From Candidatus Microgenomates bacterium (GTDB lineage: Bacteria > Patescibacteriota > JACPGU01), in assembly GCA_016188915.1 (NCBI GenBank), contig JACPGU010000001.1, positions 123,106-187,105 of the forward strand: a DNA stretch of 64,000 nt. The letters run 5' to 3'. The first letter of the stretch is position 1; each line of letters opens with the position of its first letter. The notes below the pieces were generated by a model. That model was not told the DNA's origin. It did no database searches and was given only the letters and a program-made list of their open reading frames with translations. Made by a program: the position numbers and the translations under genes. Below, piece after piece: positions 49,227-64,000 of this stretch.

Positions 49227-50099
49227 TCATTTCCCTAGATTTTTCTGAAAAATTATTAGCGCTTCTTCTAATGCCCATTCAGGATTTTCAGAAGAAAAAT
49301 TCTCAAAATTTAAATCTCGGCGAAACCGATCGGACAAGGCCGCCAGCCCCGCCAAAATTGTCAATTGCTGAGCAGGATTGTCCATATTGTGACCACCGAA
49401 CTGGTAACCCTCATTCTTGGTGACATGGCCATTCATGGGGTTAATGCCACAGGCGTCTCCCGGACAACTGACATTGAGCCAGCCCGTGTCATAATCAATA
49501 GAGGCGCGGAAGTTATATTTCTCAAACTTGCTTAGCGGTCCATACATTCTCCGATGAGCCCGAATCATCGCCTCTACCATTTCCGGACGAGAGGTCTGAG
49601 CCGGAAAAGAACTAAGATATCGTCCCAGACTTAGACTGAAATCGCCACTTATGGATCCTCCGTGCATATCTTTCAAAGTGGCGAAATCGATCGTCATGAT
49701 TTGTGGCTCCTTGGATGAGGTATTCTCCTTCGGATGAAAGGCCCAGAAGCCAAAGAAGCATAGACTGGCCGAAATGGCAAAGGCTTCTTGGTAGTCACAC
49801 CAAAAATCGTATCCACCTCCTTCGCAACAGGGGCATCTTCCTTCGTGATACGGATGCTTTTTGCTCCCTCCGCAGAACCGACACTTTTCTTCCGTTCGTT
49901 TTTTCACCCTCGGAATAAGAGCGGAAAGCACGATGAAATCTTTTGGTTGCCTTTTTACCGGAACAAAAGCGCCATCAAAGCCAAAACCTTGGCTAAAGTC
50001 AGAACAAAATGCCTGAAAGCCAAATTTTTTTTTGAAATCTGCGATGATAGGCGCTTGAGGCGCACTCTTTTGCCGTCCCAAGAAAAACGGTACCAGCAC
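49227..50099 (-). CDS. hypothetical Cys-containing protein, higher GC; 5' region overlaps an alternative frame (possible frameshift)
   Basis: CRFCGGSKKHPYHEGRCPCCEGGGY cluster, no known domain. Overlapping ORF 49955-50245 in another frame across an A9 run. Confidence 0.35.
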   Translation of the reverse strand: MLVPFFLGRQKSAPQAPIIADFKKKFGFQAFCSDFSQGFGFDGAFVPVKRQPKDFIVLSALIPRVKKRTEEKCRFCGGSKKHPYHEGRCPCCEGGGYDFWCDYQEAFAISASLCFFGFWAFHPKENTSSKEPQIMTIDFATLKDMHGGSISGDFSLSLGRYLSSFPAQTSRPEMVEAMIRAHRRMYGPLSKFEKYNFRASIDYDTGWLNVSCPGDACGINPMNGHVTKNEGYQFGGHNMDNPAQQLTILAGLAALSDRFRRDLNFENFSSENPEWALEEALIIFQKNLGK

Positions 50100-50257
50100 G
50101 GTCTATCGGCGTAGCGAATGTTGACTATATCTCCCATGGCGATCCCGCCCTTTCTTTTTGGATTTTTAAGGCGACAAAAACCAAGCCCTCCGAGAGCTTG
50201 GTCAATTGTTAGCTTAATTATAACAAAGAAAATCTCCCGCCACAATCTAAAACAGAT

Positions 50258-52498
50258 TTAGCCTCTTTTTTTAATCCGCAAACTATTGACTACCACCGAC
50301 ACGGAAGAAAAGGCCATGGCTCCCGCCGCAATCATCGGACTCAAGAGCCCTACCGCCGCCAGTGGAATAGCCGCCGCATTGTAGGCAAAGGCCCAGAAAA
50401 GATTTTGCTGTATAACACGAAAAGTTTTTTGCGAAAGAGCAATCGCTTCTACCACCTTCATCGGACTGCCTTTGACAATCACGATGTTGCCCGCTTCAAT
50501 GGCGATGTCCGTTCCCGTTCCCATGGCGATGCCGAAATCTGATTGCGCCAAAGCCGGCGCGTCGTTGATACCATCGCCGATAAAAGCGATTTTCTTCCCC
50601 TCCTCCTGCAATTTTTTGACAATAGCCGCTTTTTCCTGTGGCAGAACTTCGGCAAAAATCTGATCTATTTTAAGTTCTCGGCCGATAGCTTCGGCGGTTT
50701 TTTGATTGTCGCCGGTAATCATTATTGCCGCGATATTTTTATTTTTTAATTGTCTGATCGCTTCTACCGCGTCCGGCTTTACCGTGTCGGCGATAGCGAC
50801 AAGACCCAAAATCTCTTTTTCTCTGACAATCATCACCACTGTCTTGGCTTCAGCTTGGAGTTTCCGCAAAAAAGTTTCATCCTTCAATTTTACGCCCAAT
50901 TCTTCCGCCATTTTCTCGTTGCCTACCGCCACCTGTTTCCCGCCAATAAATCCTTTAACTCCCTTGCCGGCCACATTTTCAAATTTTTCCACTTCCAGCA
51001 ATTTCACTCCGTCTTTCTCCGCCCTCTCCACGATCGCTCGCGCCAGAGGATGGTCAGAATTTTTGTCGAGCGAGGCGGCTACTGTCAGCACACCCCGAGG
51101 AGACACCTCGGGGCTCCCCGAGGTGTCTCCTCGGGGGATAACAACGATATCCGTTACCACCGGCTTCCCCTCCGTCAGGGTCCCGGTTTTGTCAAAAATC
51201 ACCGCGTCAATTTTTTTGCCTTTTTCTAAAGACTCGCCGTTTTTGATGAGGATTCCTTTTTTCGCTCCCAGCCCTGTCCCGACCATGATGGCCGTAGGCG
51301 TAGCCAGACCGAGCGCGCAAGGACAAGCGATGACCAAGACCGCCACGGCTGGCACGAAAGCGGAAGCGATGTCACCTGTCGCCCAATACCAAATGCCAAA
51401 AGTAATAATAGCAATCAAGAAAACCACCGGCACAAAGATAGAAGAGATCTTGTCCGCCAATTTTTGAATCGGCGCTTTTTGCGTCTGCGCGTCAGAGACC
51501 ATTTGGACGATTTGGGAGAGGACAGTTTCAGCCCCCACCTTGGTCGCTTTCATAATAATCACGCCGTTGATATTGATGGTGGCGGCAAAAACTCCATCGA
51601 AGATATTTTTTTCTACCGGCATACTCTCGCCGGTCAGCATAGATTCATCAATAGTCGTCTCTCCTTTTGTAATTTCTCCGTCAGTCGGGATTTTTTCACC
51701 CGGCAAAACACGCAGGGTGTCTCCTACTTGCACTTGTTCAATCGGAATCTCTTTTTCTTGGTCACCTTCTACTAGTCGCGCGGTCTTGGCGCCCAATTTC
51801 AGCAATTTCTCAATCGCCTCACTCGCTTGTCCGCGACTTTTGGCTTCAAAATAGCGCCCTAGTAAAATCAGCGCCGTAATCACCGCGCCGATTTCAAAAT
51901 ACAGGTCCTTTCCTCCGGAAGACAATTCCCAAAAGCTAAAGATCAGAGCCGCCAAAGTACCGACAGAAATCAGCGTATTCATATCGGCGGAAAAATAGCG
52001 TAATTGTTTGGCCGCGCCACGGTGAAATTCCCAACCGATGACAAGAATGACGACGGTGGACAATACTGCTTCAATAATCATGCTGGCGTTGAAACCAAAA
52101 TACTCCCAGGGCAATTCTATTTTGCCCATGGCTATAATCAGTGGCGGTAAGGCTAGAATAAGCGCGATAATTGCCCTGTTTCTGGCTTTCAAAGTTTCAG
52201 CCGATCCCGAAGGATGGTGATGGGAGTGGTCCGCCTTATGAGACGAAGCATGCCTGCCCGCCGAAATGGAGGGCTTCGTCTCTACATGATCCATTACGGC
52301 TTTGTAGCCAACCTTTGCTACTGCCTGATGGAGATCGTGTTCGGAAGCCAGATTTTCGTCAAATTCTACCGTGGCGCTCCGCAACGCCAGATTGACCGAA
52401 GCGGATTTGACGCCCGGCACTTTTTGTAGCGCTTTTTCGTTTTTTAGAACACAGCTGGCGCAATGCAAACCCTCAATGGCAAAAGTTGTTTTTTTCAT
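50258..52498 (-). CDS. copA: copper-translocating P-type ATPase
   Basis: N-terminal HMA (GLHCASC), CPC in TM6, DKTGTLT, GDGINDAP. Carries an in-frame 44-nt palindromic insertion. Confidence 0.92.
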   Translation of the reverse strand: MKKTTFAIEGLHCASCVLKNEKALQKVPGVKSASVNLALRSATVEFDENLASEHDLHQAVAKVGYKAVMDHVETKPSISAGRHASSHKADHSHHHPSGSAETLKARNRAIIALILALPPLIIAMGKIELPWEYFGFNASMIIEAVLSTVVILVIGWEFHRGAAKQLRYFSADMNTLISVGTLAALIFSFWELSSGGKDLYFEIGAVITALILLGRYFEAKSRGQASEAIEKLLKLGAKTARLVEGDQEKEIPIEQVQVGDTLRVLPGEKIPTDGEITKGETTIDESMLTGESMPVEKNIFDGVFAATININGVIIMKATKVGAETVLSQIVQMVSDAQTQKAPIQKLADKISSIFVPVVFLIAIITFGIWYWATGDIASAFVPAVAVLVIACPCALGLATPTAIMVGTGLGAKKGILIKNGESLEKGKKIDAVIFDKTGTLTEGKPVVTDIVVIPRGDTSGSPEVSPRGVLTVAASLDKNSDHPLARAIVERAEKDGVKLLEVEKFENVAGKGVKGFIGGKQVAVGNEKMAEELGVKLKDETFLRKLQAEAKTVVMIVREKEILGLVAIADTVKPDAVEAIRQLKNKNIAAIMITGDNQKTAEAIGRELKIDQIFAEVLPQEKAAIVKKLQEEGKKIAFIGDGINDAPALAQSDFGIAMGTGTDIAIEAGNIVIVKGSPMKVVEAIALSQKTFRVIQQNLFWAFAYNAAAIPLAAVGLLSPMIAAGAMAFSSVSVVVNSLRIKKRG
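51093..51136. repeat. 44-nt perfect palindrome inside copA coding sequence (CCCCGAGGAGACACCTCGGGG-CT-CCCCGAGGTGTCTCCTCGGGG)
   Basis: Seen directly. Encodes PRGDTSGSPEVSPRG between DKTGTLTEGKP and the N-domain. Confidence 0.8.
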
Positions 52499-52764
52499 GA
52501 TGTGTATATTTTACTTTTAACAACGATTAAGTCTTCTAAGTATATTCCTACTGTCAATTTCTAAATCCTAATTTCTAATTTCTAAACAAACCTTAAATCC
52601 TAAAACCCAATTACAGAAACGCTCGCTCTTTAAGGTTCGACCTCCCTCCAGAGGCGGGCGAGTAAACAGCCAATTCTCAAGGTCGAACCTTTTCTCGCTC
52701 GCTTAATTTCTCCCGCCTCCTTTATCCAAATATATTGTTGGCGGGACCCCGCCAAAGGCGGTGG

Positions 52765-54117
52765 TTAATTTCTAACTTCAAATCCCGCTCCCGGCGTCGT
52801 CATCCCCATCGCGCAGTAAAAGGGATAAAATCCGGGCTTGGGAAAATTGAGCTTGATGGTTTTCGTACCCTTTTGTGGCAAAATTTCTTGAATATCCAAA
52901 TCAGGCAAAATCAAAATCCGCGCGCAACCGGCGGCATTAGCGCCATCCACCACCCACTCAATATCCGTATTGGCAAGAACGGTAAAATTGGCTGGAAAAT
53001 AATCGTAGCCCTCTACCTTCATTTTTACTTTGTTTTTGATAGTTGTATTATCCTCCTTTTCTCCTATCTTTGGCAAATTAAACGAAACTGGAGTTTCCGC
53101 CTTGGCCAAAATTTTTCCCACCCCCAAGAGATTGGCTCCGCCATTTAGACCAAATATCCCCAACACGATGACGATAAGACCTGCCGTCGTAACAAAATAT
53201 CTTTTGGCTGTCCCTTGCAGAAAATTAGCCATCGCCCCCACTGAAAGCAGACCCGGCAGAGTCCCTAGCGCAAAGATTCCCATGGTCAGCATACCGAGAA
53301 CGAATCCGCCTTGCGACAAAACATAGAGCTGGAGCGCTTGTGTGAATCCGCAAGGCAGGAAGAAGGTAAGGGCTCCCAAAACAAAAGGCTTCGCGCCTCC
53401 ACTTTTTGCTTGATGATGAGAAAAATGACCGAAAATTTTTGGCATTTTCAACCCCAAAAGCCCAAGTTTCGGGAAGATGCCCAACATTTGTACGCCCAAA
53501 ATCATCATGGCGAAAGAAGCGATGATGGTAATCAGACCGCTCATCTTTGGCGAGAGAGAAAAGCTACTTCCCAGGACCCCCACTAAACCACCCAGTAAGG
53601 AGTAAGAGATGATCCGACCGAAGTTGAAAGACAGTTGCGCGCGCCACAGAAAACTTTTTTTCATCCCTTGCTCCAAGAGACGGGTGGAGATAGAAACCAA
53701 AAGTCCGCCGGTGACCGCCATGCAAGTGGAAAAAGCGGCGACTAACCCCAGGAGAAAAACGAATCCATAGCTCATTTCTTCTTTGATGCCGAAGCCTTCC
53801 GGCAATAGATCTAATTTTTTGAGCAAAATGTAAACAGAAAGAAGCAGTAACGCCAGCGCTCCGATCTCGCTCCAGCGATTGACTGACGGCGTCGTCTTGA
53901 GACTCTCTCCTTCGCGAAAAACCCGGTAGTCCGTATCAGCCAAAAGACTATTTAATTTGGCCAGATCCGGCTCGCGCTCCGCGTAGATTTTTAAGCCTCC
54001 CAGAGCCGTGCTGGCGCGCGCCTTGACTGCTCCGGGAAGTGTCATCGCCACCTTTTCTAAAGTGATTTCACAAGCGGCGCAATGCATGCCGGAGACTTTG
54101 AATTTATATTTTTGCAT
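52765..54117 (-). CDS. HMA-domain membrane protein (TauE/SafE-like permease core) with C-terminal cupredoxin-like segment
   Basis: N-terminal GMHCAACE HMA motif, about 8 TM segments, C-terminal YPFYCAMGM. Confidence 0.55.
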   Translation of the reverse strand: MQKYKFKVSGMHCAACEITLEKVAMTLPGAVKARASTALGGLKIYAEREPDLAKLNSLLADTDYRVFREGESLKTTPSVNRWSEIGALALLLLSVYILLKKLDLLPEGFGIKEEMSYGFVFLLGLVAAFSTCMAVTGGLLVSISTRLLEQGMKKSFLWRAQLSFNFGRIISYSLLGGLVGVLGSSFSLSPKMSGLITIIASFAMMILGVQMLGIFPKLGLLGLKMPKIFGHFSHHQAKSGGAKPFVLGALTFFLPCGFTQALQLYVLSQGGFVLGMLTMGIFALGTLPGLLSVGAMANFLQGTAKRYFVTTAGLIVIVLGIFGLNGGANLLGVGKILAKAETPVSFNLPKIGEKEDNTTIKNKVKMKVEGYDYFPANFTVLANTDIEWVVDGANAAGCARILILPDLDIQEILPQKGTKTIKLNFPKPGFYPFYCAMGMTTPGAGFEVRN

Positions 54118-54715: not shown

Positions 54716-56167
54716 TCATTTCATTTTTTTTCTCAACACTTCCATCACCACCTCCGGGTTGGCTTGGCCACGGGTCACCTTCATCACTTGCCCGACAAAA
54801 AAGCCGAGGATTTCTGTCTTGCCGGCGCGGTATTGCGCCACCGGCCCGGGATTGGCGGCAATAATTTCCTGAATGATTTTCTCCAGCTCTCCAATATCCG
54901 AGATCTGCTTGATACCTTCGGCAGATATAATTTCATCCGCGCTCCGACCGCTCTCCGCCATTTTGGCAAAAACATCTTTGGCTATTTTACTAGAAATCTC
55001 GCCCGACTCGATCTTGCTCGCCAAATCTGCCAGATCAGTTGGTTTGATTTTGAAATCGGCAATCGTTTGATTGTTAGCGTTCAGATAACCCAAAACATCG
55101 GTCAAAAGTAAAGAGGCGGTCTTTTTTCGTAGAGACAATTCATGAATTGTCTCTACCGCAGTTTCAAAATACCCTGCTAGATCTATATCACCGACAAAAA
55201 CTTCCGTGTCTTTCTCATTCAACCCAAAATCTTTCCCATATCTCTCTCTTTTCTCCGCCGGTAGCTCCGGTATTTGTCGTTTTAATTCTTCTAAGTCAAA
55301 TGCCTGTTTGTGATTTGAGATTTGTGATTTGTCGTTTCCGACGCGAAGCGGAGGCAAGTCTGGTTCCGGAAAGTACCGGTAGTCATGCGCCTGTTCCTTA
55401 CTCCTCTGCGAAAAAGTTTTTTGCTTCGCCTCGTCCCAACCGCGCGTTTCTTGCGTCACCTTCCCGCCTTCCTCCAAAATTTCTGTCTGCCTTTTGATCT
55501 CGTACGCCAACGCCTTTTCCACTGACGCAAAAGAATTCATATTTTTCACCTCCGCTTTTTTGCCCAGCTCTTTCTGTCCCACGGGACGAACAGAGATATT
55601 AGCATCGCACCGCAAATGTCCTTTTTCCATATCGGCATCAGAAATGTCAAGATAACGCAAGATGAGGCGCAATTCCTGCATGAAAGTTTTGGCCTCTTGT
55701 GGCGTAGAAAAACACGGATTAGTAACGATTTCCAAAAGTGGCGTTCCCGCGCGATTCAAATCCACCAGCGAATAGTCGCCAGCGTGGATTAATTTCCCCG
55801 CGTCTTCTTCGAGGTGGATGTGTTCGATGGTGAAAGTTTTGCTGTCAATCTCTAGCTCTCCTCCTACCAACGGCGGGGTGGTCTGACTGGTTATCTGATA
55901 CGCCTTTGGTAGGTCGGGATAGAAATATTGCTTGCGTTCAAAATTAAATTGGGGCGAGATCTGGCACCCCAAGGCTAGACCCAAAAGATAGGTCCATTCC
56001 AGCGCTTGACGATTGGCGACCGGCAAAGTCCCGGGATGCCCCATGCACACGGGACAAGTGACGGTATTAGGCTCTTTGCCTTCGGCGTCATTATCGCAAC
56101 TACAAAACATCTTGCTCTTTGTTTTGAGCTGGCAGTGGATTTCCAGACCGATGACTGGTTCGTACAT
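54716..56167 (-). CDS. gatB: aspartyl/glutamyl-tRNA amidotransferase subunit B
   Basis: MYEPVIGLEIHCQL...CSCDN...CPVCMGHPGTLPV N-terminal GatB signature. Full length. Confidence 0.93.
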   Translation of the reverse strand: MYEPVIGLEIHCQLKTKSKMFCSCDNDAEGKEPNTVTCPVCMGHPGTLPVANRQALEWTYLLGLALGCQISPQFNFERKQYFYPDLPKAYQITSQTTPPLVGGELEIDSKTFTIEHIHLEEDAGKLIHAGDYSLVDLNRAGTPLLEIVTNPCFSTPQEAKTFMQELRLILRYLDISDADMEKGHLRCDANISVRPVGQKELGKKAEVKNMNSFASVEKALAYEIKRQTEILEEGGKVTQETRGWDEAKQKTFSQRSKEQAHDYRYFPEPDLPPLRVGNDKSQISNHKQAFDLEELKRQIPELPAEKRERYGKDFGLNEKDTEVFVGDIDLAGYFETAVETIHELSLRKKTASLLLTDVLGYLNANNQTIADFKIKPTDLADLASKIESGEISSKIAKDVFAKMAESGRSADEIISAEGIKQISDIGELEKIIQEIIAANPGPVAQYRAGKTEILGFFVGQVMKVTRGQANPEVVMEVLRKKMK

Positions 56168-56170
56168 TTT

Positions 56171-56210
56171 AGTATTAAGTATTAAGTATTAGGTATTAGG
56201 TATTAAGTAT
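56171..56210. repeat. microsatellite (GTATTAR heptamer x about 5.5)
   Basis: agtattaagtattaagtattaggtattaggtattaagtat. Confidence 0.7.
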
Positions 56211-56251
56211 AGCAGAAAAAAGATTTTCTAAAAAGCTGGCAAATTTTATTC

Positions 56252-56280
56252 TTGAATATTAAAAAGTATTGGTGTATGAT
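56252..56280 (+). promoter_or_regulatory. sigma70-like promoter TTGAAT-17-TATGAT
   Basis: TTGAAT 56252-56257, 17-nt spacer, TATGAT 56275-56280. Confidence 0.45.
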
Positions 56281-56327
56281 AAGCCAGTCTTTTGAAGACC
56301 AATCCACCTTGACAAAGGAGACCTGTA

Positions 56328-56705
56328 ATGAAACCTCTCGCAAAAACGGGCCTTCCGAAAGGTGGCTCGCCCGATTCGCTACGGCAGATTTTTATGGTCA
56401 TACATTCCAACGGTTCTTCTCGGCGCAAATTACATCTGGGCGTCAGCGGAAATCCGAGAACATGGATGAGAGCCAAAGGCGACCAAAAGTTTTATATTCG
56501 CTACCACGTCTGGACTTGCGCCCTAGAAGGATCCGAAAAAGATGTCCTTTCTCGCGCCCTGCCTCTGGCCGAACAAGGCGGAGTTCAAATGGCTGACATC
56601 TTCGCCTTTCAGATCTCTCCGCTAGTCAGCGAGAGTCAAAGTCTACACCAAGTAACGCTTTTTTACTTCACCGAGGAAAAACGGGCAAACTCCGCTAAAA
56701 AATAA
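56328..56705 (+). CDS. hypothetical protein
   Basis: ORF downstream of a promoter. No domain. Confidence 0.3.
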   Translation: MKPLAKTGLPKGGSPDSLRQIFMVIHSNGSSRRKLHLGVSGNPRTWMRAKGDQKFYIRYHVWTCALEGSEKDVLSRALPLAEQGGVQMADIFAFQISPLVSESQSLHQVTLFYFTEEKRANSAKK

Positions 56706-56885
56706 CCCGCCATATAACTTTTGTTCGCACTTCGTCCGGGAATAGTTTCCGGTTTCTGCTATTCTCGGCAATATCGCTTTTGGCGCTTCCCCGCTTCCCC
56801 CTCGCGCCGGCCGATATTCTCCAATCTTTCCGCCGGCAAACCACCCCTCAAAAGGTGGTTTTATTTTGCTTTCTTTGGAAAACTA

Positions 56886-56914
56886 TTGACTTTTATCATA
56901 AAAAGGTGTATAAT
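56886..56914 (+). promoter_or_regulatory. sigma70-like promoter TTGACT-17-TATAAT (the -10 overlaps a candidate ATG)
   Basis: TTGACT 56886-56891, 17-nt spacer, TATAAT 56909-56914. Confidence 0.4.
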
Positions 56915-57578
56915 GATAGAGTGGTTTAAAAAATTGAAAGGGGGCCAAACGGCCATCATGAAGATCATTTACAGGAAGAATGGGGAGGAGCGGGAGACCC
57001 AACTATCCCACCTGGTTTTCAGGGGGATCGTCTGGAAGGTGGAGGAGAGATTCAAAAACAAATTCCTCCAGATTTACGCGACTCTCGAGATGCGCGGACA
57101 TCTCTCGACCGTCCTCAAAACGGTCAAAGAAAAAGGGCTGCACGCCATCGCGCAGGAGGCGTCTCCTCCGCTGTGGTTCGTCGCCTCCAACCCGGAACTC
57201 TTGGAAGAACAGGGGCTATCGTTCTCTCAAAGGGAAAATACCCTGATCATCATCAAGAAGAAGTTCCCGAAGAAGCTCCAGGATGATCCCTCTTTGGGGA
57301 TTAACAGCAAATTGGTGATTGTTTGCCAAAAGGTGCAGAAACTGGAAGATCTTCTCCGGCAAGAGGAGGAGACTCGGAGGATCGTCTTGCAGGCGATCAA
57401 TCCTGGCCGGAATGCGGAATTGGTGGGAAAACCCACCCCGCCACCTGCTCCTCCGTCACCTGCCTCGCCACCGACTCTGCAGCCTGGGCTGCAGGAAGCG
57501 ATCGAGAAAATCGGCGAAGAAGACACCGTCAAAATGACGGCCAAGGCGGAGAGGGAAAAGAAAAGACTGGTGGCCTGA
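56913..57578 (+). CDS. hypothetical protein with Pro-rich C-terminal region (alternative start 56958); in-frame ORF continues past TGA to 57830
   Basis: ORF. The TGA at 57576-57578 is followed by 84 in-frame sense codons with no start codon. Confidence 0.35.
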   Translation: MIEWFKKLKGGQTAIMKIIYRKNGEERETQLSHLVFRGIVWKVEERFKNKFLQIYATLEMRGHLSTVLKTVKEKGLHAIAQEASPPLWFVASNPELLEEQGLSFSQRENTLIIIKKKFPKKLQDDPSLGINSKLVIVCQKVQKLEDLLRQEEETRRIVLQAINPGRNAELVGKPTPPPAPPSPASPPTLQPGLQEAIEKIGEEDTVKMTAKAEREKKRLVA

Positions 57579-57971
57579 GAGCTGGAAAAGCGACTCCGGG
57601 AGGCCGAAAGGGAATCGGCCAAAAAGCCCCCTCGTCAAAAAAAGGACTGGCAGAAGACCGAACGAGGGCGGAGGACTCTGGCCCGGGCAGGCAAAGGCAC
57701 CTCCAACCGCCGAACCGGCTGGGATCCCAAGAAAGGGGTTAACCCCGCCGCCGACACCCACGGCCGCAAAAACGGCGGCAAGGCCAAGGCGACCGGGAAA
57801 AACGGCGGAGCCAAGGCCGGGAAGAAGTGATTTCAAAGGACGCGCGTAGCGCGTCCGCCAGCACCCCCGAAAGGGGGTGTTTTTTATGCGCGAATTTTTG
57901 AGAATAAGCAATTTAGAACTATGCTATAATGTGTTTACGACCTATCACCTATAATCTATCACCTAATTACA

Positions 57972-58802
57972 ATGTTCTGCTATTTCAACGACAAAATAGT
58001 GCCTCTGGAAGAAATCAAAATCTCACCCTATGATTTAGGCTTTTTGCGCGGTTTTGGTGTTTTTGATTTCCTCCGCACCTATGGCGGGAAACCATTTCGA
58101 TTGGCTGACCATATCAAAAGATTTCGAGCCAGCGCCAATATCACCAAACTCCCCGTCCCCTATTCCGATGGGAAAATAATGGAGCTGACCGAAGAATTAT
58201 TGGAAAAAAACGGCCGACCGGAGTGCTGTATCAGAATCATGCTCTCGGGTGGTGTAGAACCAAAACTTACCGCGCCGACTTTTCTGATTTTAATTGAACC
58301 CCTCCATACTTTTCCATCCGAATGTTATACGAAAGGTATCAAGGTCGCGACTATTAACGAGCATCGACTTTATCCGACAGCCAAAACGACCTGCTATTTG
58401 CCGGCATTGAAAGCCCAACAAGAATTAAAAAATGAAAATCCTTTTGAAGTTATCTACGCGCCCGACGGCAATGTCTTGGAGGCCTCCACCGCCAACATTT
58501 TCATTGTCAAAAATGGAAAGCTCATCACGCCAAAAGATGGTATTCTGCTTGGTATCACCCGACAGGTGGTGCTAGAGCTATCTGTAGAGACGAAGCATGC
58601 TTCGTCTCTACAGGCGACAGAGTCCGTAATCGTCCTTCAAGAATTATATACCGCCAATGAATGTTTCCTGACCGCCAGCAACAAAGAAATAATGCCGGTA
58701 ACCGAAATAGACGGCCGAAAAATCGGTGATGGGCAAGTGGGCAAAATAACGAAAGAAGTGATGAAACGATTTACCGAATATACAGGCGTTGCTATAGTTT
58801 GA
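57972..58802 (+). CDS. class IV PLP-dependent aminotransferase (branched-chain/D-amino-acid aminotransferase family)
   Basis: Fold-type IV sequence character (FLRGFGVFDFLRTYGGKPF..., conserved Lys region, E..ANIF). Confidence 0.8.
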   Translation: MFCYFNDKIVPLEEIKISPYDLGFLRGFGVFDFLRTYGGKPFRLADHIKRFRASANITKLPVPYSDGKIMELTEELLEKNGRPECCIRIMLSGGVEPKLTAPTFLILIEPLHTFPSECYTKGIKVATINEHRLYPTAKTTCYLPALKAQQELKNENPFEVIYAPDGNVLEASTANIFIVKNGKLITPKDGILLGITRQVVLELSVETKHASSLQATESVIVLQELYTANECFLTASNKEIMPVTEIDGRKIGDGQVGKITKEVMKRFTEYTGVAIV

Positions 58803-58808
58803 GAAAAA

Positions 58809-60134
58809 TTATTCTGCCTTTTTGCTCTGCAAACATTCCAGCACCGCGCAAAAAGCATGGATTTTGCCGCATGGGTCGGAAACACTATGCGCTATGTGCA
58901 TCGCTTCTTTCAAAAATCGCTGGGAACCGCCAGCAGAAGCGGTAACGCACAACGCTTCGACTCTCGCAACATCATTATTCGCGAAAAGCATTAATGCCCC
59001 TCTCGCATCGTTAAACAGTTTCTTCTCTACTAGATCCTTGATGAATAATTGCCCCAATTCACCTCGCAGATCGCTGTCCACCACTCTCTCGGCCAGACAA
59101 TAAGCTTTGGCGCAGTTCTCGTTATTCCAAAACGCGCGCGCCAAGTGGTAGTAATGCCTGTTAAATTCAGAGGAAGATTCACTGACAGAAGAAATCATCA
59201 TATTAAGGGCTACAAACAGTTCCGAAGCATATCTCTCATACCGGTCGCTAACGGAGCTGATTGCATCGGCAACCATGCAGGACAAAAGGAGGCGTTCTTT
59301 CTTGTCCTCCTCTGGAACGCCATTAACAAGAGAGCGCATTCTCCTGATGATTCCCTCATCCGGTTTCGACCCGATGATATGGCGTAACACCTCCAAATGC
59401 ACTGAAGGAAACCGAGAGAGGACGGGATCGCTCTCTGTCGTATTTGCCATATCAGAGCGACCCAACAAGACCTCCGTCCTCACGGCCTCACACAGAAGCT
59501 CCGCCAAAGCGGCTGATTTGTTCGCTCCATCCATACCCTGCACGAAGCTATTAAGATAGCCCATGCCCGTTTTTAGGTATTCGACATCTCTAGTGTCTGT
59601 CGCAATCCGAAAAAACAACAACGGCCGAGGAAACTTCTCTCTCACCGAAAAAGCAAACTTTTTGGCCTCCTCTGCTCCTTTCAAAAGGAGAAAGGTGTCT
59701 ATAAATGCTATCCACGCGGCGCGGGCGCGAGCGCGATTCTCTATACTGTCAGTCAGCCAGGCGCAACTTGCTATTCCCGCGGTCTGGATTTGCTCAAGAA
59801 TTTTTTTATCTCCGAGGACAACTGCGGCGCGACTCAAAACGCACACCTGAAGCCACGTATACTGCCCGAGTATCAAAGGTCGCCGAAAAGCTTCGAGGGC
59901 TTCTCCTAACGCACGCTGGGTTTCCTCCAGCGCAACTCTCCTTTCGGTCTTGGCAAAACTGTCTATAATATCTCGCAAGACCGCTCGAGGATATGTCGCC
60001 CCTTCAACACGCTTTAAAAACTCTGATACTTGCCTAAGAGTAGCGTCATTCATTGCAGACCTCTTTGTTAAGGTATTTCCAGCCCGTGCCCATTGACCAC
60101 AACGCACCCGTCTGCACGCCGTGGGTAAAGACAT
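58809..60134 (-). CDS. hypothetical alpha-helical protein, higher GC (probable start 60053); possible paralog of 4702-5940
   Basis: Ala/Leu/Arg-rich ORF. Local similarity (D..E.LC...A...G) to the 412-aa protein. Adjacent to repeat family 2 copy C. Confidence 0.4.
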   Translation of the reverse strand: MSLPTACRRVRCGQWARAGNTLTKRSAMNDATLRQVSEFLKRVEGATYPRAVLRDIIDSFAKTERRVALEETQRALGEALEAFRRPLILGQYTWLQVCVLSRAAVVLGDKKILEQIQTAGIASCAWLTDSIENRARARAAWIAFIDTFLLLKGAEEAKKFAFSVREKFPRPLLFFRIATDTRDVEYLKTGMGYLNSFVQGMDGANKSAALAELLCEAVRTEVLLGRSDMANTTESDPVLSRFPSVHLEVLRHIIGSKPDEGIIRRMRSLVNGVPEEDKKERLLLSCMVADAISSVSDRYERYASELFVALNMMISSVSESSSEFNRHYYHLARAFWNNENCAKAYCLAERVVDSDLRGELGQLFIKDLVEKKLFNDARGALMLFANNDVARVEALCVTASAGGSQRFLKEAMHIAHSVSDPCGKIHAFCAVLECLQSKKAE

Positions 60135-60246: not shown

Positions 60247-60289
60247 GAACACGACCTATAACTCACGGCCGTGAGTTATAGGTCGTGTT
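60247..60289. repeat. repeat family 2, copy C (40-nt perfect palindrome ACACGACCTATAACTCACGGCCGTGAGTTATAGGTCGTGT)
   Basis: Seen directly. Same arm sequence as copies A and B, but with no spacer. Confidence 0.7.
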
Positions 60290-60721: not shown

Positions 60722-61129
60722 TTACATCGCGCCCAAATCCTGCAATGTTTTTTCAAATTTTTTAATTGCGGTTCTTGCTTCAAAATCCATCACATTGTAA
60801 TCCATGTTGTGCACCATTTCATTTCTCAATTTGTGCGCCTGCCACATATCATTGAAAAAGTCGCGGTCAAAATCGTCTCTTGGGATCATTTTCATCCGCT
60901 CCCCCATTGTCTGCCCGCGATAATTTAAGGATTTCAAAACATGGTCTAATAATTTGTCAGCATCTAAAACTGCTGTCTTGAAAGCCGAGGGTCGTCCGAC
61001 TTTCATCAAGGTCTCAATCTCCGCCCATTTTTCCCGCACATAGATCCTCTCTTGTACCGAAAGTCCACCCCGCGCGCTGGGAGAAAAAGAGGGGGTGAGG
61101 AGTTTTTTGAGGAAGGAAAGGAAGGACAT
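60722..61129 (-). CDS. hypothetical protein (DUF4145-like C-terminal region)
   Basis: HKLRNEMVHN segment reminiscent of DUF4145. Start ATG 61129 directly after the brnA stop. Confidence 0.3.
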   Translation of the reverse strand: MSFLSFLKKLLTPSFSPSARGGLSVQERIYVREKWAEIETLMKVGRPSAFKTAVLDADKLLDHVLKSLNYRGQTMGERMKMIPRDDFDRDFFNDMWQAHKLRNEMVHNMDYNVMDFEARTAIKKFEKTLQDLGAM

Positions 61130-61130
61130 G

Positions 61131-61397
61131 TTATTTTTTCGCAATGCCTTGTTTAATATAGCGTTTGATAAGTGACTGATACGGCACATCCAACTCATTG
61201 GCTTGCTCCTTGAGGCGAACCAGAAGAAATGACGGAAGACGAAGCGAGATTGACTGCGAAGACGGCTTGAGATTGGGGAAAAATGCCGGCACGAAATCAG
61301 CGCTGTCAAAATATTCGTCCAGCGATACTTTGTCCCAAAACTTTCTCTCTTCGTCCTCGTTTTTGAATTTTGGTACCTTTAATGATTTCTTAGGCAT
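61131..61397 (-). CDS. brnA: BrnA-like antitoxin (ribbon-helix-helix)
   Basis: MPKKSLKVPKFKNEDEERKFWDKVSLDEYFDSADFV...ISLRLPSFLLVRLKEQANELDVPYQSLIKRYI matches BrnA. 8-nt overlap with brnT. Confidence 0.65.
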   Translation of the reverse strand: MPKKSLKVPKFKNEDEERKFWDKVSLDEYFDSADFVPAFFPNLKPSSQSISLRLPSFLLVRLKEQANELDVPYQSLIKRYIKQGIAKK

Positions 61398-61677
61398 ACA
61401 ATTTCCTTTCTTTCTTATTGATTGGTCGCGCCGATATGACGCGGACATTATTGCTCCTGATAGTAAAAACTATAAAAAGAATTTTATTATTTTTTGTCGC
61501 TCCGAGTAAAATATATCTTTCTTCTTTGTCGGAATGCAATGTGTCTTTTGCTATCTTTTTGCGATAGTCGAAAAAGGACTCTTCGCATTCGCCGGAAGTT
61601 ATTTGATGTTTTTTCCAAATCTTTTCTCTATTGGCGCTGTCCCATTGAAATTCTAATGGTTCTTTCAATATCTTCAT
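61390..61677 (-). CDS. brnT: BrnT-like toxin (DUF497 ribonuclease)
   Basis: FQWDSANREKIWKKHQITSGECEESFFD...HSDKEERYILLGATKNNKILFIVFTIRSNNVRVISARPINKKERKLY matches BrnT. Confidence 0.7.
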   Translation of the reverse strand: MKILKEPLEFQWDSANREKIWKKHQITSGECEESFFDYRKKIAKDTLHSDKEERYILLGATKNNKILFIVFTIRSNNVRVISARPINKKERKLYA

Positions 61678-61791: not shown

Positions 61792-62517
61792 TTAAGGAGC
61801 CAGTTGCGGAACAACGACCCGCAGCCGACTGCCGGCACCCCACACGCCGGCGCCGCCGAACTCGTAGACGTCCACGACCAGACGACCACCGCCGCTCAGA
61901 CCCACGACGGCAACGAAGAAACGGCCATCTTCCTCCCTGTTAATGAGAAAGAAATACCAGCCTGGGACGAGCTTGTCGCGATGCCTCTCGCAGAAATCGA
62001 CAACCTGGGACTGTTCCCAGTAAAGGGTGCTAAGACTTCGGCCTTTGAATCCTTCGTAGATCTGCCGGAATTTGGCGTTTTCTACTAACTCTAGAACGGT
62101 AGCCATGGCTTTTGAAGTTGGTTTGCTTGGCTTGTCGAGTTCCCATCTCCTGAAATTTGGGCCAATACCATCCTTGAAGACATTCTCCGCGTCAGCGATG
62201 GTTCTCTGGCCGTCCGTATCGAAGATAGGAACGCTCTCGTAGCCAGGAACGACTTTAAGAAATGGATTGATTAGGCCGAGAGCTTTTGCAACATTGGGTT
62301 TCGAGTCGGTGGCGGGAACAATCTTTGCTGTTCCTTGCAAAAAGCTCAAGATGTGAGGCAGATATTCCCTACCTCTTGCGCGCACCATTTCCTCGTCAGT
62401 AGCGCCAGCTCTCACCAACGCATCCACTAACTGCCTTGCCGTGCTCCACTTCAAAGAAGGCATTGCCTTCCTCCTTTCCGGGGCATTGCCCCACCAAAAT
62501 GCTGTTTGGTTTGGCAA
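61792..62517 (-). CDS. hypothetical protein, higher GC (probable start 62463 after AAGGAGG RBS)
   Basis: ORF with its own promoter and a long structured leader. Confidence 0.4.
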   Translation of the reverse strand: MPNQTAFWWGNAPERRKAMPSLKWSTARQLVDALVRAGATDEEMVRARGREYLPHILSFLQGTAKIVPATDSKPNVAKALGLINPFLKVVPGYESVPIFDTDGQRTIADAENVFKDGIGPNFRRWELDKPSKPTSKAMATVLELVENAKFRQIYEGFKGRSLSTLYWEQSQVVDFCERHRDKLVPGWYFFLINREEDGRFFVAVVGLSGGGRLVVDVYEFGGAGVWGAGSRLRVVVPQLAP

Positions 62518-62640
62518 ACATTGTTTGCCACAGCAGAAAGGGGTCTAGCGCGGGAAAAGGTCGTTCCTCGGCCGTAGCGAAGCGAAGGAAGAGGTGCGAC
62601 CTTGAGGAGCGCCAACCAGACCACTTTCTGCTGTGGCAAA
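62511..62640 (-). promoter_or_regulatory. structured 5' leader: 22-bp inverted repeat (TTTGCCACAGCAGAAAGGGGTCT / AGACCACTTTCTGCTGTGGCAAA) enclosing nested hairpins
   Basis: Long near-perfect IR with nested AAGGTCG/CGACCTT helices, between the promoter at 62692-62720 and the RBS. Confidence 0.4.
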
Positions 62641-62826: not shown

Positions 62827-62982
62827 CTACAACGCTGGCCACTTCGTATGCCAATCGGTCGCGTTCTGGAAAGCCATGCCGGCGGAGATTAATTTTTCCT
62901 CGCCGAAACGAGGGCCGAGTATTTGGAGCCCGACAGGCAGAGGGGTAGTTGGTAGTTGGTAGTTGGAGAAGATTTGGAAGCG
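62827..62982 (-). pseudogene. remnant of a reverse-transcriptase 3' end (no start codon), homologous to the C-terminus of the RT at 63684-64000
   Basis: Translates to ...LQILGPRFGEEKLISAGMAFQNATDWHTKWPAL* versus the RT ...SGLLGHGNAKKLEKLISIGIAFQNATDWHTKPPLLS*. Bounded upstream by an in-frame TGA. Confidence 0.4.
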
Positions 62983-63055
62983 TCAGATATAGGGGTAAAA
63001 AGTTTTGAGAGGAGAGAGAGATGGCATAGAGGGATCGAGATCAAATGAATAGACC

Positions 63056-63397
63056 CTACCCTGAAATTAAGAGAATTATTTTTTCTTGCAGTTCTTTGAA
63101 AGTATTATTAGCTACTTTTTCTACAAAAGCAACTCCGCGGCTTTGCCAATCAATACTTTTGAGCTGATCGGACAAAATAGCCCCTGTTATTTTCTTGCCG
63201 TTGTGCGCGACTTCAAAAGGATATGTTTTTATTTTGGAGGTAACAGGACAAACGAGCGCGAGTCCTGATCTTTCGTTATAATCTTTTGGCGAAACAACAA
63301 CAGCCGGCCTCCTGCCTTTCTGCTCGTGACCAGATGTAGTGTAAAAATCAACCCAAATACAATCTCCTCTTTCGGGAACATATTTTGTTTTCACCAC
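63056..63397 (-). CDS. mazF: MazF/PemK-family toxin (endoribonuclease)
   Basis: VPERGDCIWVDF...RPAVVVSP...LVCPVTSKIK...AILSDQLKSIDWQSR matches the MazF/PemK fold. Confidence 0.8.
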   Translation of the reverse strand: MVKTKYVPERGDCIWVDFYTTSGHEQKGRRPAVVVSPKDYNERSGLALVCPVTSKIKTYPFEVAHNGKKITGAILSDQLKSIDWQSRGVAFVEKVANNTFKELQEKIILLISG

Positions 63398-63633
63398 ACT
63401 TCCTTTCCCTTTGCATCACCCCAACTAATATGTTCCGGCAGATTTTGAGGGGATATTTTCTTGACGAGATCGACTAGAGTAGTATTTTTTTTCCTAATCG
63501 GCTGAACGACTATATGTTTTCTCCCAGCAACGATAGTAACTGCTACTCCTTCTGACAGATGATAGTGTTCGGCAATGTCTTTGGGTAGACGCACCGCCAG
63601 ACTATTACCCCACTTTTGAACTTTAGTCGTCAT
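63391..63633 (-). CDS. mazE: MazE-like antitoxin (AbrB/SpoVT-type swapped hairpin)
   Basis: VQKWGNSLAVRLPKDIAEHYHLSEGVAV matches MazE. Overlaps mazF by 7 nt. The AGTAGTATCTACT palindrome at 63645-63657 just upstream is a likely operator. Confidence 0.75.
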   Translation of the reverse strand: MTTKVQKWGNSLAVRLPKDIAEHYHLSEGVAVTIVAGRKHIVVQPIRKKNTTLVDLVKKISPQNLPEHISWGDAKGKEVW

Positions 63634-63683
63634 ATGAATTTGCTTAGTAGTATCTACTTAGTATATACATCCTGCTATGACTG

Positions 63684-64000
63684 TCAACTAAGTAATGGGG
63701 GCTTTGTGTGCCAATCGGTCGCGTTCTGGAAAGCAATGCCAATAGAGATTAGTTTTTCCAACTTTTTCGCATTTCCATGCCCCAAAAGCCCCGAATACGA
63801 AGCGAGTGTTTCGGGAGAAGGACATTCCGCTACTCTTTTCATCATACGCCTTTTTGTCGCAGTCCTCAATACTCTGTGGTCAGGGAAATGCACCCAGCCC
63901 AAGAAATCCAGACCGGACGACAAGGTGGCAACGAAAGTTTTGCGCGGATGAAGCTCCAGCTTTAATTTTTCTTTAAGAAATTCTGCAATTCGCGACAATT
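63684..64000 (-). CDS. reverse transcriptase, C-terminal part (gene continues beyond window end); DGR/retron/group-II-like RT
   Basis: LKLELHPRKTFVATLSSGLDFLGWVHF is the RT domain 7 / thumb junction motif (h-h-L-h-h-K-T, G-h-D-F-L-G). Confidence 0.6.
   Translation of the reverse strand, partial: LSRIAEFLKEKLKLELHPRKTFVATLSSGLDFLGWVHFPDHRVLRTATKRRMMKRVAECPSPETLASYSGLLGHGNAKKLEKLISIGIAFQNATDWHTKPPLLS

Follow-up and report, generated by a model that had tools for sequence, protein, structure and literature searches.

Remnants of the gatA 3' end bracket a mazEF pair and a diversity-generating retroelement in a Candidatus Microgenomates chromosome

The 64,000-nt stretch of a Candidatus Microgenomates bacterium analyzed here (contig JACPGU010000001.1; hereafter, the window) carries near its end a mazEF toxin-antitoxin (TA) pair between two direct repeats, one of which forms the end of a reverse transcriptase (RT) gene. 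In the original prediction, these repeats were regarded as derivatives of the RT gene. The comparisons described below show another origin: the repeated block consists of the last codons of gatA, and the RT belongs to a complete and genuine diversity-generating retroelement (DGR) that extends past the window edge. GatA is the amidase subunit of Asp/Glu-tRNA amidotransferase. Serial insertion at the 3' end of gatA, with displacement of the former gene end by homology-anchored illegitimate recombination, is considered a somewhat probable explanation of this arrangement.

A repeat search of the window detected a 58-nt direct repeat (62842-62899 and 63702-63759; 86% identity; spacing, 860) containing a perfect 26-mer, TGCCAATCGGTCGCGTTCTGGAAAGC. 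A 22-nt core of this repeat occurred exactly twice in the window with three mismatches allowed and was not found in any of 100 dinucleotide-preserving shuffles. The repeat is far beyond chance. The shared block noticed earlier was real and its distal coordinates were right, whereas its proximal coordinates (26-mer at 62859-62884 in a block at 62850-62912) were 10 nt too high. mazE and mazF were identified by Pfam with a repeat on either side, and the earlier statement that mazEF is bracketed by direct repeats, which are diverged, was thus confirmed. Translation of the minus strand agreed with the start-less peptide reported for the proximal copy (...EEKLISAGMAFQNATDWHTKWPAL). The distal copy gave ...GLLGHGNAKKLEKLISIGIAFQNATDWHTKPPLLS, the end of an open reading frame (ORF) running off the window; it falls in the last 24 codons of the RT ORF and thus within the RT C-terminal coding region, as had been claimed.

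A 3635-nt Logan contig, L001 (SRR12113420; present in two samples), was recovered by an exact look-up with MazE; exact look-ups with MazF and GatB returned nothing useful. This contig was identical to the window at 1156 of 1156 overlapping positions and added 2479 nt, extending the sequence to window-equivalent position 66479. The plus strand of L001 corresponds to the minus strand of the window, and a window coordinate equals 66480 minus the L001 coordinate. The copies of the repeated block were named in the orientation of gatA (window minus strand) as copy 0, which lies past the window edge, followed by copy D and copy P. The RT protein is identical to NCBI MBI2448135.1 (Candidatus Microgenomates bacterium), and GatB is identical to MBI2448123.1 on the same NCBI contig of 198,983 nt. 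An assembly artefact is unlikely, because the identical runs (26-34 nt) are shorter than the read size and the same arrangement is seen in the contig of the NCBI metagenome-assembled genome and in the Logan contig from two samples. The features of this part of the window are as follows.

54716-56167, minus strand: gatB (GatB_N and GatB_Yqey), on the same strand as the gatA remnants
62827-62943, minus strand: copy P, gatA 3' remnant with the last 38 codons and stop of GatA, PLPVGLQILGPRFGEEKLISAGMAFQNATDWHTKWPAL*; the start codon is absent
62842-62899: proximal repeat copy, perfect core at 62849-62874
62944-63055, minus strand: 112-nt spacer from the mazF stop to copy P; pyrimidine-rich coding strand; (CCAACTA)x3 abuts the 5' edge of copy P
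63056-63397, minus strand: mazF/PemK toxin gene, 113 aa (PF02452, E=1.2e-24)
63391-63633, minus strand: mazE antitoxin gene, 80 aa (PF04014, E=2e-11)
63660-63687 (L001 2793-2820), minus strand: presumed mazEF promoter, TTGACA-16-TATACT (11/12), the best σ70-like site of the contig; overlaps the RT stop
63684-63758, minus strand: copy D, gatA 3' remnant with 24 codons and stop, EKLISIGIAFQNATDWHTKPPLLS*, in frame as the RT C-terminus
63684-64000, minus strand: 3' part of the RT gene, which goes on to window-equivalent 64706 (RVT_1, beside bAvd)
63702-63759: distal repeat copy, perfect core at 63709-63734

When the peptide of copy P was compared with all PDB chains by phmmer, the sole significant matches were the extreme C-termini of GatA proteins, namely 4wj3_A (residues 446-482 of 484, E=4.9e-6) and 3kfu_E (E=0.006). 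In a tblastn comparison, copy P also matched residues 453-489 of the 490-residue GatA of the closest relative (E=8e-8). In addition, GatA of the nearest relatives ends in EKLPVGLQIMGPRFEEGKILAIAK.YED..EW..M[FW]PEIK*, and the homology of this ending to the proximal copy is plain. On the basis of these matches and of the location of gatB downstream on the same strand, the repeated block is identified as the last codons of gatA and not an RT fragment. A derivation of the repeats from the RT gene is contradicted by the proximal copy, which continues upstream as GatA (LPVGLQILGPRFGEEK...) and matches GatA C-termini, not RT. The start-less peptide past mazEF is accordingly a gatA pseudogene fragment and not a second retroelement. 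The proposal that mazEF entered a duplicated 3' region of the RT gene named the wrong object, the duplicated sequence being the gatA 3' end. No gatA body is present in the window, since the amidase signature GGSSGG is absent throughout it, and protein- and DNA-level searches of the window revealed no further copies of the tail.

The third GatA tail, copy 0, is located at L001 1-43 (...QNATDWHTKFPIT*). The 26-nt core is common to all three copies, and copies 0 and P are identical across 34 nt (GCTTTCCAGAACGCGACCGATTGGCATACGAAGT; GCTTTCC...GAAGT). Upstream of the core, copies D and P share 25 nt more at about 72% identity, and copy P alone extends farther upstream as GatA, with 13 extra codons (LPVGLQILGPRFG). 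No GatA-like sequence was found in the translation 5' of the copy P edge (upstream of PLPVG), which is abruptly cut beside (CCAACTA)x3; this edge of the spacer is presumed to be an illegitimate junction. Downstream of the core, copies 0 and D are alike through and past the stop (CCCCATTACTTA, then TA[G/A]GTAGATACTAC). A 1-nt deletion in copy D relative to copy 0 turns KFPIT* into KPPLLS*, and the old frame of copy D still gives ...KAPIT*. The 5' truncation is unequal, copy P keeping 38 codons and copy D 24. From these comparisons, copy D is a frameshifted, 5'-truncated derivative of a copy-0-type tail, and copy P is the remnant of a more divergent tail that was truncated separately and kept more of its length. 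Both ends of L001 fall precisely at the breaks that a k=31 de Bruijn graph would show if copies 0 and P shared the 34-mer and differed on either side of it. From this assembly behaviour, copy 0 would reach upstream to GCTTTCC or beyond. Together with synteny, it suggests that copy 0 is the end of an intact gatA (...AFQNATDWHTKFPIT*) located 5' of the DGR.

Thousands of RT homologs were found in the candidate phyla radiation (CPR). The best were 64-70% identical, and the alignments ended at about 94% of the query. The 14 homologs inspected end in ...SY.GLL.HGN[AT][YF]KL[RK][KR].[IV] plus 3-15 unconserved residues, and none of these 14 has the IAFQNATDWHTK tail. The RT family homology runs to about HGNAKKL, and the homology to the GatA tail begins at EKLIS. 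Because close RT homologs end without IAFQNATDWHTK, the RT acquired the gatA tail and not the reverse; judging from the alignments, the RT has lost at most a few variable C-terminal residues. The RT ORF reads through about 22 GatA-derived codons to a TGA stop. This stop lies two codons past the site of the former gatA stop (a TAA in copy 0), the 1-nt deletion in copy D having put that site out of frame. This TGA is inside the TTGACA of the mazEF promoter-like site. The annotation logic for the locus is therefore corrected: it is the RT that borrowed its last ~22 residues from gatA. The alternative suggestion of a deleted second RT copy is refuted by the same data, as the RT homologs lack the tail and the proximal copy is GatA.

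In L001, copy 0 is followed by a promoter-like site, a hairpin, a 197-aa ORF containing a variable repeat (VR), a template repeat (TR), avd, the RT gene including copy D, mazE, mazF, and copy P. The coordinates of the elements upstream of mazEF are given below.

L001 82-110: strong promoter-like site, just after copy 0
L001 176-262 (window-equivalent 66218-66304), window minus strand: stable hairpin, z = −6.1 on the coding strand
L001 325-918: DGR target ORF, 197 aa
L001 775-900: VR, within the 48 codons that end the 197-aa ORF
L001 1257-1382: TR
L001 1413-1739, opposite strand: bAvd gene (PF22296)
L001 1774-2796: RT gene, 340 aa, the last 24 codons of which are copy D

The TR/VR pair is 126 nt long and has 16 differences, 15 of which are at TR adenines and all 16 at codon positions 1 or 2. 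Both VR and TR are closed by an invariant G+C-rich stretch, CTGGCGTTTTGCCGCTGTCCGC. The RT has the DGR-type motif LGNLTSQ and YADD; the criterion for the DGR RT clade was an [I/L/V]GxxxSQ motif and YxDD. Avd matched NF033474 (DivGenRetAVD) with E=1e-18 and 67.5 bits, under the curated 80-bit cutoff. These features show that the RT is part of a complete, genuine DGR. NCBI names this protein a [quoted passage not shown]; according to the present analysis it is a bona fide DGR RT. A DGR is indicated rather than a group II intron because avd and a TR/VR pair are present. No intron RNA was detected by Rfam, and a group II intron with gatA as its flanking exon was ruled out, since the tail directly abuts the RT and leaves no room for domains V and VI. 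RT-made retro-copies of the gatA mRNA 3' end are also unlikely: the copies have no common 3' end, are followed by different sequences, and are 10-25% diverged. Of the promoter-like sites of L001, the two strongest are one shortly past copy 0 and one at the copy D end. The hairpin at L001 176-262 lies between the former site and the start of the DGR target, in the presumed 5' untranslated region (UTR) of the diversified gene, and had no Rfam match.

Relatives at 67-70% GatB identity were examined. The closest GatB among 5.8 billion sequences was only 70% identical, showing that this lineage is sparsely sampled. The gene order is gatC, gatA, a 122-aa gene, an Asp/Glu racemase gene, and gatB in one relative (L043), and gatA, a 44-aa ORF, NUDIX, a 134-aa gene, the racemase gene, and gatB in another (L044). 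The gap between gatA and gatB is 1.5 and 2.1 kb in L043 and L044, respectively, compared with at least 10.3 kb here. Each of these two relatives has a single GatA tail, and DGR, mazEF, and brnTA are absent there. This comparison, which had been proposed earlier as a check, favors insertion. The features between copy P and gatB that bear on it are listed below.

60725-61129, minus strand: ortholog of a conserved small gene (tblastn, 63% over 120 aa with L043 and 54% over 135 aa with L044)
61131-61677, minus strand: brnT/brnA TA pair (PF04365 and PF12441), not in the relatives' gatA-gatB interval
61792-62463, minus strand: 223-aa ORF, or 241 aa if started at an upstream TTG; nearest gene past copy P, not in the relatives' gatA-gatB interval
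62524-62640, both strands: hairpin of ~117 nt with 23-nt outer arms that are 96% complementary (fold z = −9.2 / −8.4)

The gene at 60725-61129 marks the point where ancestral synteny resumes. Because this ortholog of the relatives' 122/134-aa gene is located there, the block from copy 0 to it, comprising the DGR, copy D, mazEF, copy P, the 223-aa ORF, and brnTA, is lineage-specific. The small genes between gatA and gatB differ already between L043 and L044, and the gap is thus a variable spot. The wider window is core chromosome with the gene order of the relatives (HtrA, PrmC, rubrerythrin, exonuclease, RF-1, Dus, and others). ORFs without an assigned family gave no matches to PADLOC or NCBIfam. 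The nearly perfect hairpin at 62524-62640 separates copy P from the next ORF, 360 nt away. It has no second copy in the window and had no Rfam match; it could be a small RNA, a 5' UTR element, or the relic of an inverted-repeat element.

The following course of events is proposed from the anatomy of the locus and from precedent. An incoming segment would consist of a gatA 3' region plus cargo. Homologous recombination would take place inside gatA, and the far end of the segment would be joined illegitimately, inside or just 5' of the resident gatA tail. gatA would thereby keep a working end, and its former end would be shifted downstream as a 5'-truncated, decaying orphan. In the first event, a segment carrying the gatA 3' region and mazEF would have displaced the resident tail, now copy P with 38 codons left. 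In a later event, a segment carrying the gatA 3' region and the DGR would have displaced the tail then resident, now copy D with 24 codons left. Copy P would then be the oldest tail, copy D would have arrived with mazEF, and copy 0 with the DGR. If the far end of the second segment was joined at the very end of the RT gene, the in-frame fusion of RT and gatA would be a by-product. Such displacement explains why the 5' edges are ragged, why copy D has decayed, why mobility genes are lacking, why each cargo has a promoter of its own, and why the spot varies even between L043 and L044. The ORFs scanned in the window and L001 yielded no integrase, recombinase, or transposase.

C-terminal or sequential displacement of this kind has been described for rhs, contact-dependent inhibition (CDI), and type VI secretion system (T6SS) effector-immunity loci and attributed to homology-facilitated illegitimate recombination (Kirchberger et al. 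2017, PMC5361080). In the mechanism proposed there, a conserved part of the gene serves as the homologous anchor, and the non-homologous far end is joined illegitimately (PMC5361080). Displacement arrays are also credited to Jackson et al. 2009, as cited in PMC5361080. Like these arrays, the gatA locus would have a full-length gene (here presumed) and, beyond it, copies of the 3' end of that gene that are shortened on the 5' side, each preceding the genes that formerly went with it: copy D is followed by mazEF, and copy P by the 223-aa ORF and brnTA. In the rhs, CDI, and T6SS arrays, however, the displaced 3' tips are themselves the selected cargo, being toxin domains with cognate immunity genes. 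At the gatA locus, on the other hand, the anchor is an essential housekeeping gene, its tail has no variable function, and the cargo (a whole DGR and mazEF) is unrelated to it. The remnants are also short (24 and 38 codons), and one of them has been co-opted as the end of another ORF. We regard the locus as a clear instance of a known insertion footprint in an unusual setting, with an essential anchor and a complete DGR as cargo, and not as a new kind of element.

Several points weigh against serial displacement. Illegitimate recombination of the homology-facilitated kind is rare in experiments. The gatA body expected at copy 0 was not seen in L001. No relative with more than 70% GatB identity was present in the collections, and accordingly neither a true empty site nor a donor configuration was seen in them; a degenerate FQNATDWH scan of GTDB genomes gave hits in unrelated phyla only. 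Specifically, no case of gatA directly before mazEF or this DGR was found; the RT relatives, at most 70% identical, lie in other contexts, and the MazF relatives in metagenomes and viral contigs were distant or absent (at most 56% identical), with none beside gatA. Furthermore, the 26-nt core is perfect in all three copies, whereas the flanks are ~25% different. If the 11 mismatches fell randomly in the 62 aligned positions, a perfect run of at least 26 would have a P of about 0.014. A perfect core is expected from a site-specific attachment (att) core or from gene conversion, and not from plain illegitimate joining. The conservation is attributable in part to inherited coding constraint, because the core encodes the conserved peptide AFQNATDWH.

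The perfect core is one argument for site-specific integration with tandem accretion, which we consider unlikely. In this explanation, the 26-34-nt core is an att site at which a recombinase crosses over, each unit bringing a gatA-like attP arm, as for islands at the 3' ends of tRNA, tmRNA, and protein genes; the DGR and mazEF units would be integrase-less (of the cis-mobilizable type) or decayed remnants. It would account for the perfect 26-mer in all three copies amid diverged flanks (P about 0.014), for the 34-nt identity of copies 0 and P, and for the extra motifs shared by the downstream arms of copies 0 and D, as might be seen in related attP arms. Accretion in tandem, between att repeats, of elements that lack an integrase is reported (PMC5704250, PMC7563491) for families of integrative elements that are conjugative (ICEs) or mobilizable (IMEs), and the gatA locus resembles such accretion in its direct repeats derived from a 3' end that bracket the units, in the stacking at one site, and in the gene being kept whole by a replacement end. 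Unlike in ICE/IME islands, however, conjugation or mobilisation genes and defined att arms were not found here any more than a recombinase, and the repeat edges are ragged. The same scan of the window and L001 ORFs that yielded no integrase, recombinase, or transposase thus counts against this explanation, as do the tiny size of the units (2.75 and 0.86 kb) and the different upstream edges of copies D and P, the latter with 13 extra GatA codons needless for attP. The core also coincides with the most conserved peptide, AFQNATDWH, and is thus partly under coding constraint; its exact sequence had no matches in JGI metagenomes and IMG/VR. A variant in which the core is the attachment site of an unlinked, trans-acting recombinase, with whole DGR cassettes and TA pairs moving in this CPR lineage as minimal integrase-less units that pile up where an essential gene ends, is rather improbable. 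If true, complete DGRs would have their first defined means of spreading horizontally among CPR genomes, in an accretion system that is integron-like but free of attC hairpins. Integron gene cassettes with attC-like sites were themselves rejected, since single-strand DNA folds of both strands showed no hairpin potential in the three tails (z −0.9 to +0.3) and no integrase was found. Campbell-type homologous integration is quite unlikely. Here, circles with one gatA tail plus cargo, excised for example by recombination between two tails in another cell, would integrate by a single RecA crossover in the longest identical stretch, leaving the tail duplicated on both sides of the cargo. Exactly the observed bracket of direct repeats would result, and it would be clear why the identical run, which at 26-34 nt is roughly the shortest that RecA pairs efficiently, sits centrally in each copy; the mosaic similarity among the three copies also fits hybrid products. 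The first circle, however, needs a pre-existing duplication, and the model by itself leaves the difference in truncation between copies D and P and the RT-tail fusion unexplained. No circular form was seen; both ends of L001 lie in the repeat, but a linear array gives the same result in de Bruijn assembly. The perfect core may also have arisen through gene conversion between tandem copies, which is possible.

The two explanations that involve only the retroelement fared worse. That the repeat is an RT 3' fragment, whether mazEF entered a duplicated 3' region of the RT gene or was left behind when a second copy of that gene was deleted, draws on the presence of the distal copy within the RT ORF. 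It is nevertheless highly improbable, because the proximal copy continues upstream as GatA, the RT homologs lack the shared segment, the third copy lies upstream of the whole DGR with no RT before it, and the related DGR loci have neither such a repeat nor mazEF. The 58-nt repeat does adjoin a genuine DGR RT, but its identity as a TR/VR pair or a second DGR target is scarcely conceivable: only 2 of its 8 differences are at adenines, on either strand, as against 15 of 16 in the real pair, and the TR shows no similarity to the gatA tail. The TR/VR pair proper lies 1.7 kb past the window end, and the repeat was thus excluded as a TR/VR pair, in line with the earlier view that its substitutions were not adenine-specific and that such a pair was unlikely.

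DGRs are reportedly common in CPR (PMC8144416, PMC11661182). Long contigs with RT homologs (L047-L049) carry a compact module of about 2.5 kb composed of a target of roughly 211-219 aa, a TR, avd on the opposite strand, and the RT gene. The present DGR resembles these modules in its RT (64-70% identical), in module order and size, and in the length and identity of VR/TR. The modules are wedged between unrelated housekeeping genes that differ in each genome, with a spacing of 0-20 nt or an overlap, and their VR/TR pairs (126-132 nt, 84-88% identity) are the sole direct repeats. Neither a duplicated end of a neighboring gene nor mazEF was found at L047-L049; among the compact CPR DGRs examined, only the present one is bracketed by the ends of a neighboring gene and has an RT ORF lengthened by ~22 GatA-derived residues. 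It follows that the gatA-tail bracket is a feature of the present insertion site and not of the DGR family. As an observation in its own right, the occurrence of near-identical DGR modules in three CPR genomes implies that the whole module moves as a unit without a visible mobility gene. Since related DGR cassettes lie in a different housekeeping context in each genome examined, a footprint of arrival is useful, though it comes from a single locus. Under serial displacement, the gatA locus would offer a record of how a tiny CPR chromosome, strongly syntenic in other respects, gained a complete DGR and TA modules with no mobility gene in sight. Such a record would be dated by position, with the oldest remnant furthest downstream, and its landing pad would be the end of an essential gene.

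Other features of the window were also recorded. A copper/heavy-metal module lies between gatB and the tmk-dus genes (49227-54117, minus strand) and consists of a P-type ATPase with HMA (50258-52498), a DsbD_2-cupredoxin-HMA protein (52765-54117), and a 290-aa ORF. As the relatives have only small ORFs between gatB and dus, this module is a second lineage-specific insertion by the gat genes. The racemase gene is immediately upstream of gatB in the relatives, and no racemase homolog was found in the window. Near the racemase position (region 56168-57971), a class IV aminotransferase (D-amino-acid / branched-chain type) is encoded on the opposite strand (57972-58802, plus strand) and may be a non-orthologous replacement for D-glutamate supply. 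A PaaX central Cas2-like domain (E=4e-22), along with a weak Cas2 match, was detected in a 193-aa protein encoded among housekeeping genes (28338-28919, minus strand); no CRISPR array was noticed near it. A perfect 42-nt palindrome (AACACGACCTATAACTCACGGCC / GGCCGTGAGTTATAGGTCGTGTT) is located at 60248-60289, just upstream of a 441-aa ORF (58809-60134). The sole tRNA gene in the window (33649-33722, plus strand; Rfam, 55.8 bits) is just upstream of prfA (RF-1, 33993-35075). ARAGORN assigned it a 4-base anticodon, 'ccta', and its 8-nt anticodon loop, CUCCUAGA, contains CUA (amber-suppressor-like) or the quadruplet CCUA. The location of this tRNA beside the UAG-reading release factor may be a sign of recoding, or of the suppression of stop codons or frameshifts, in this CPR genome.

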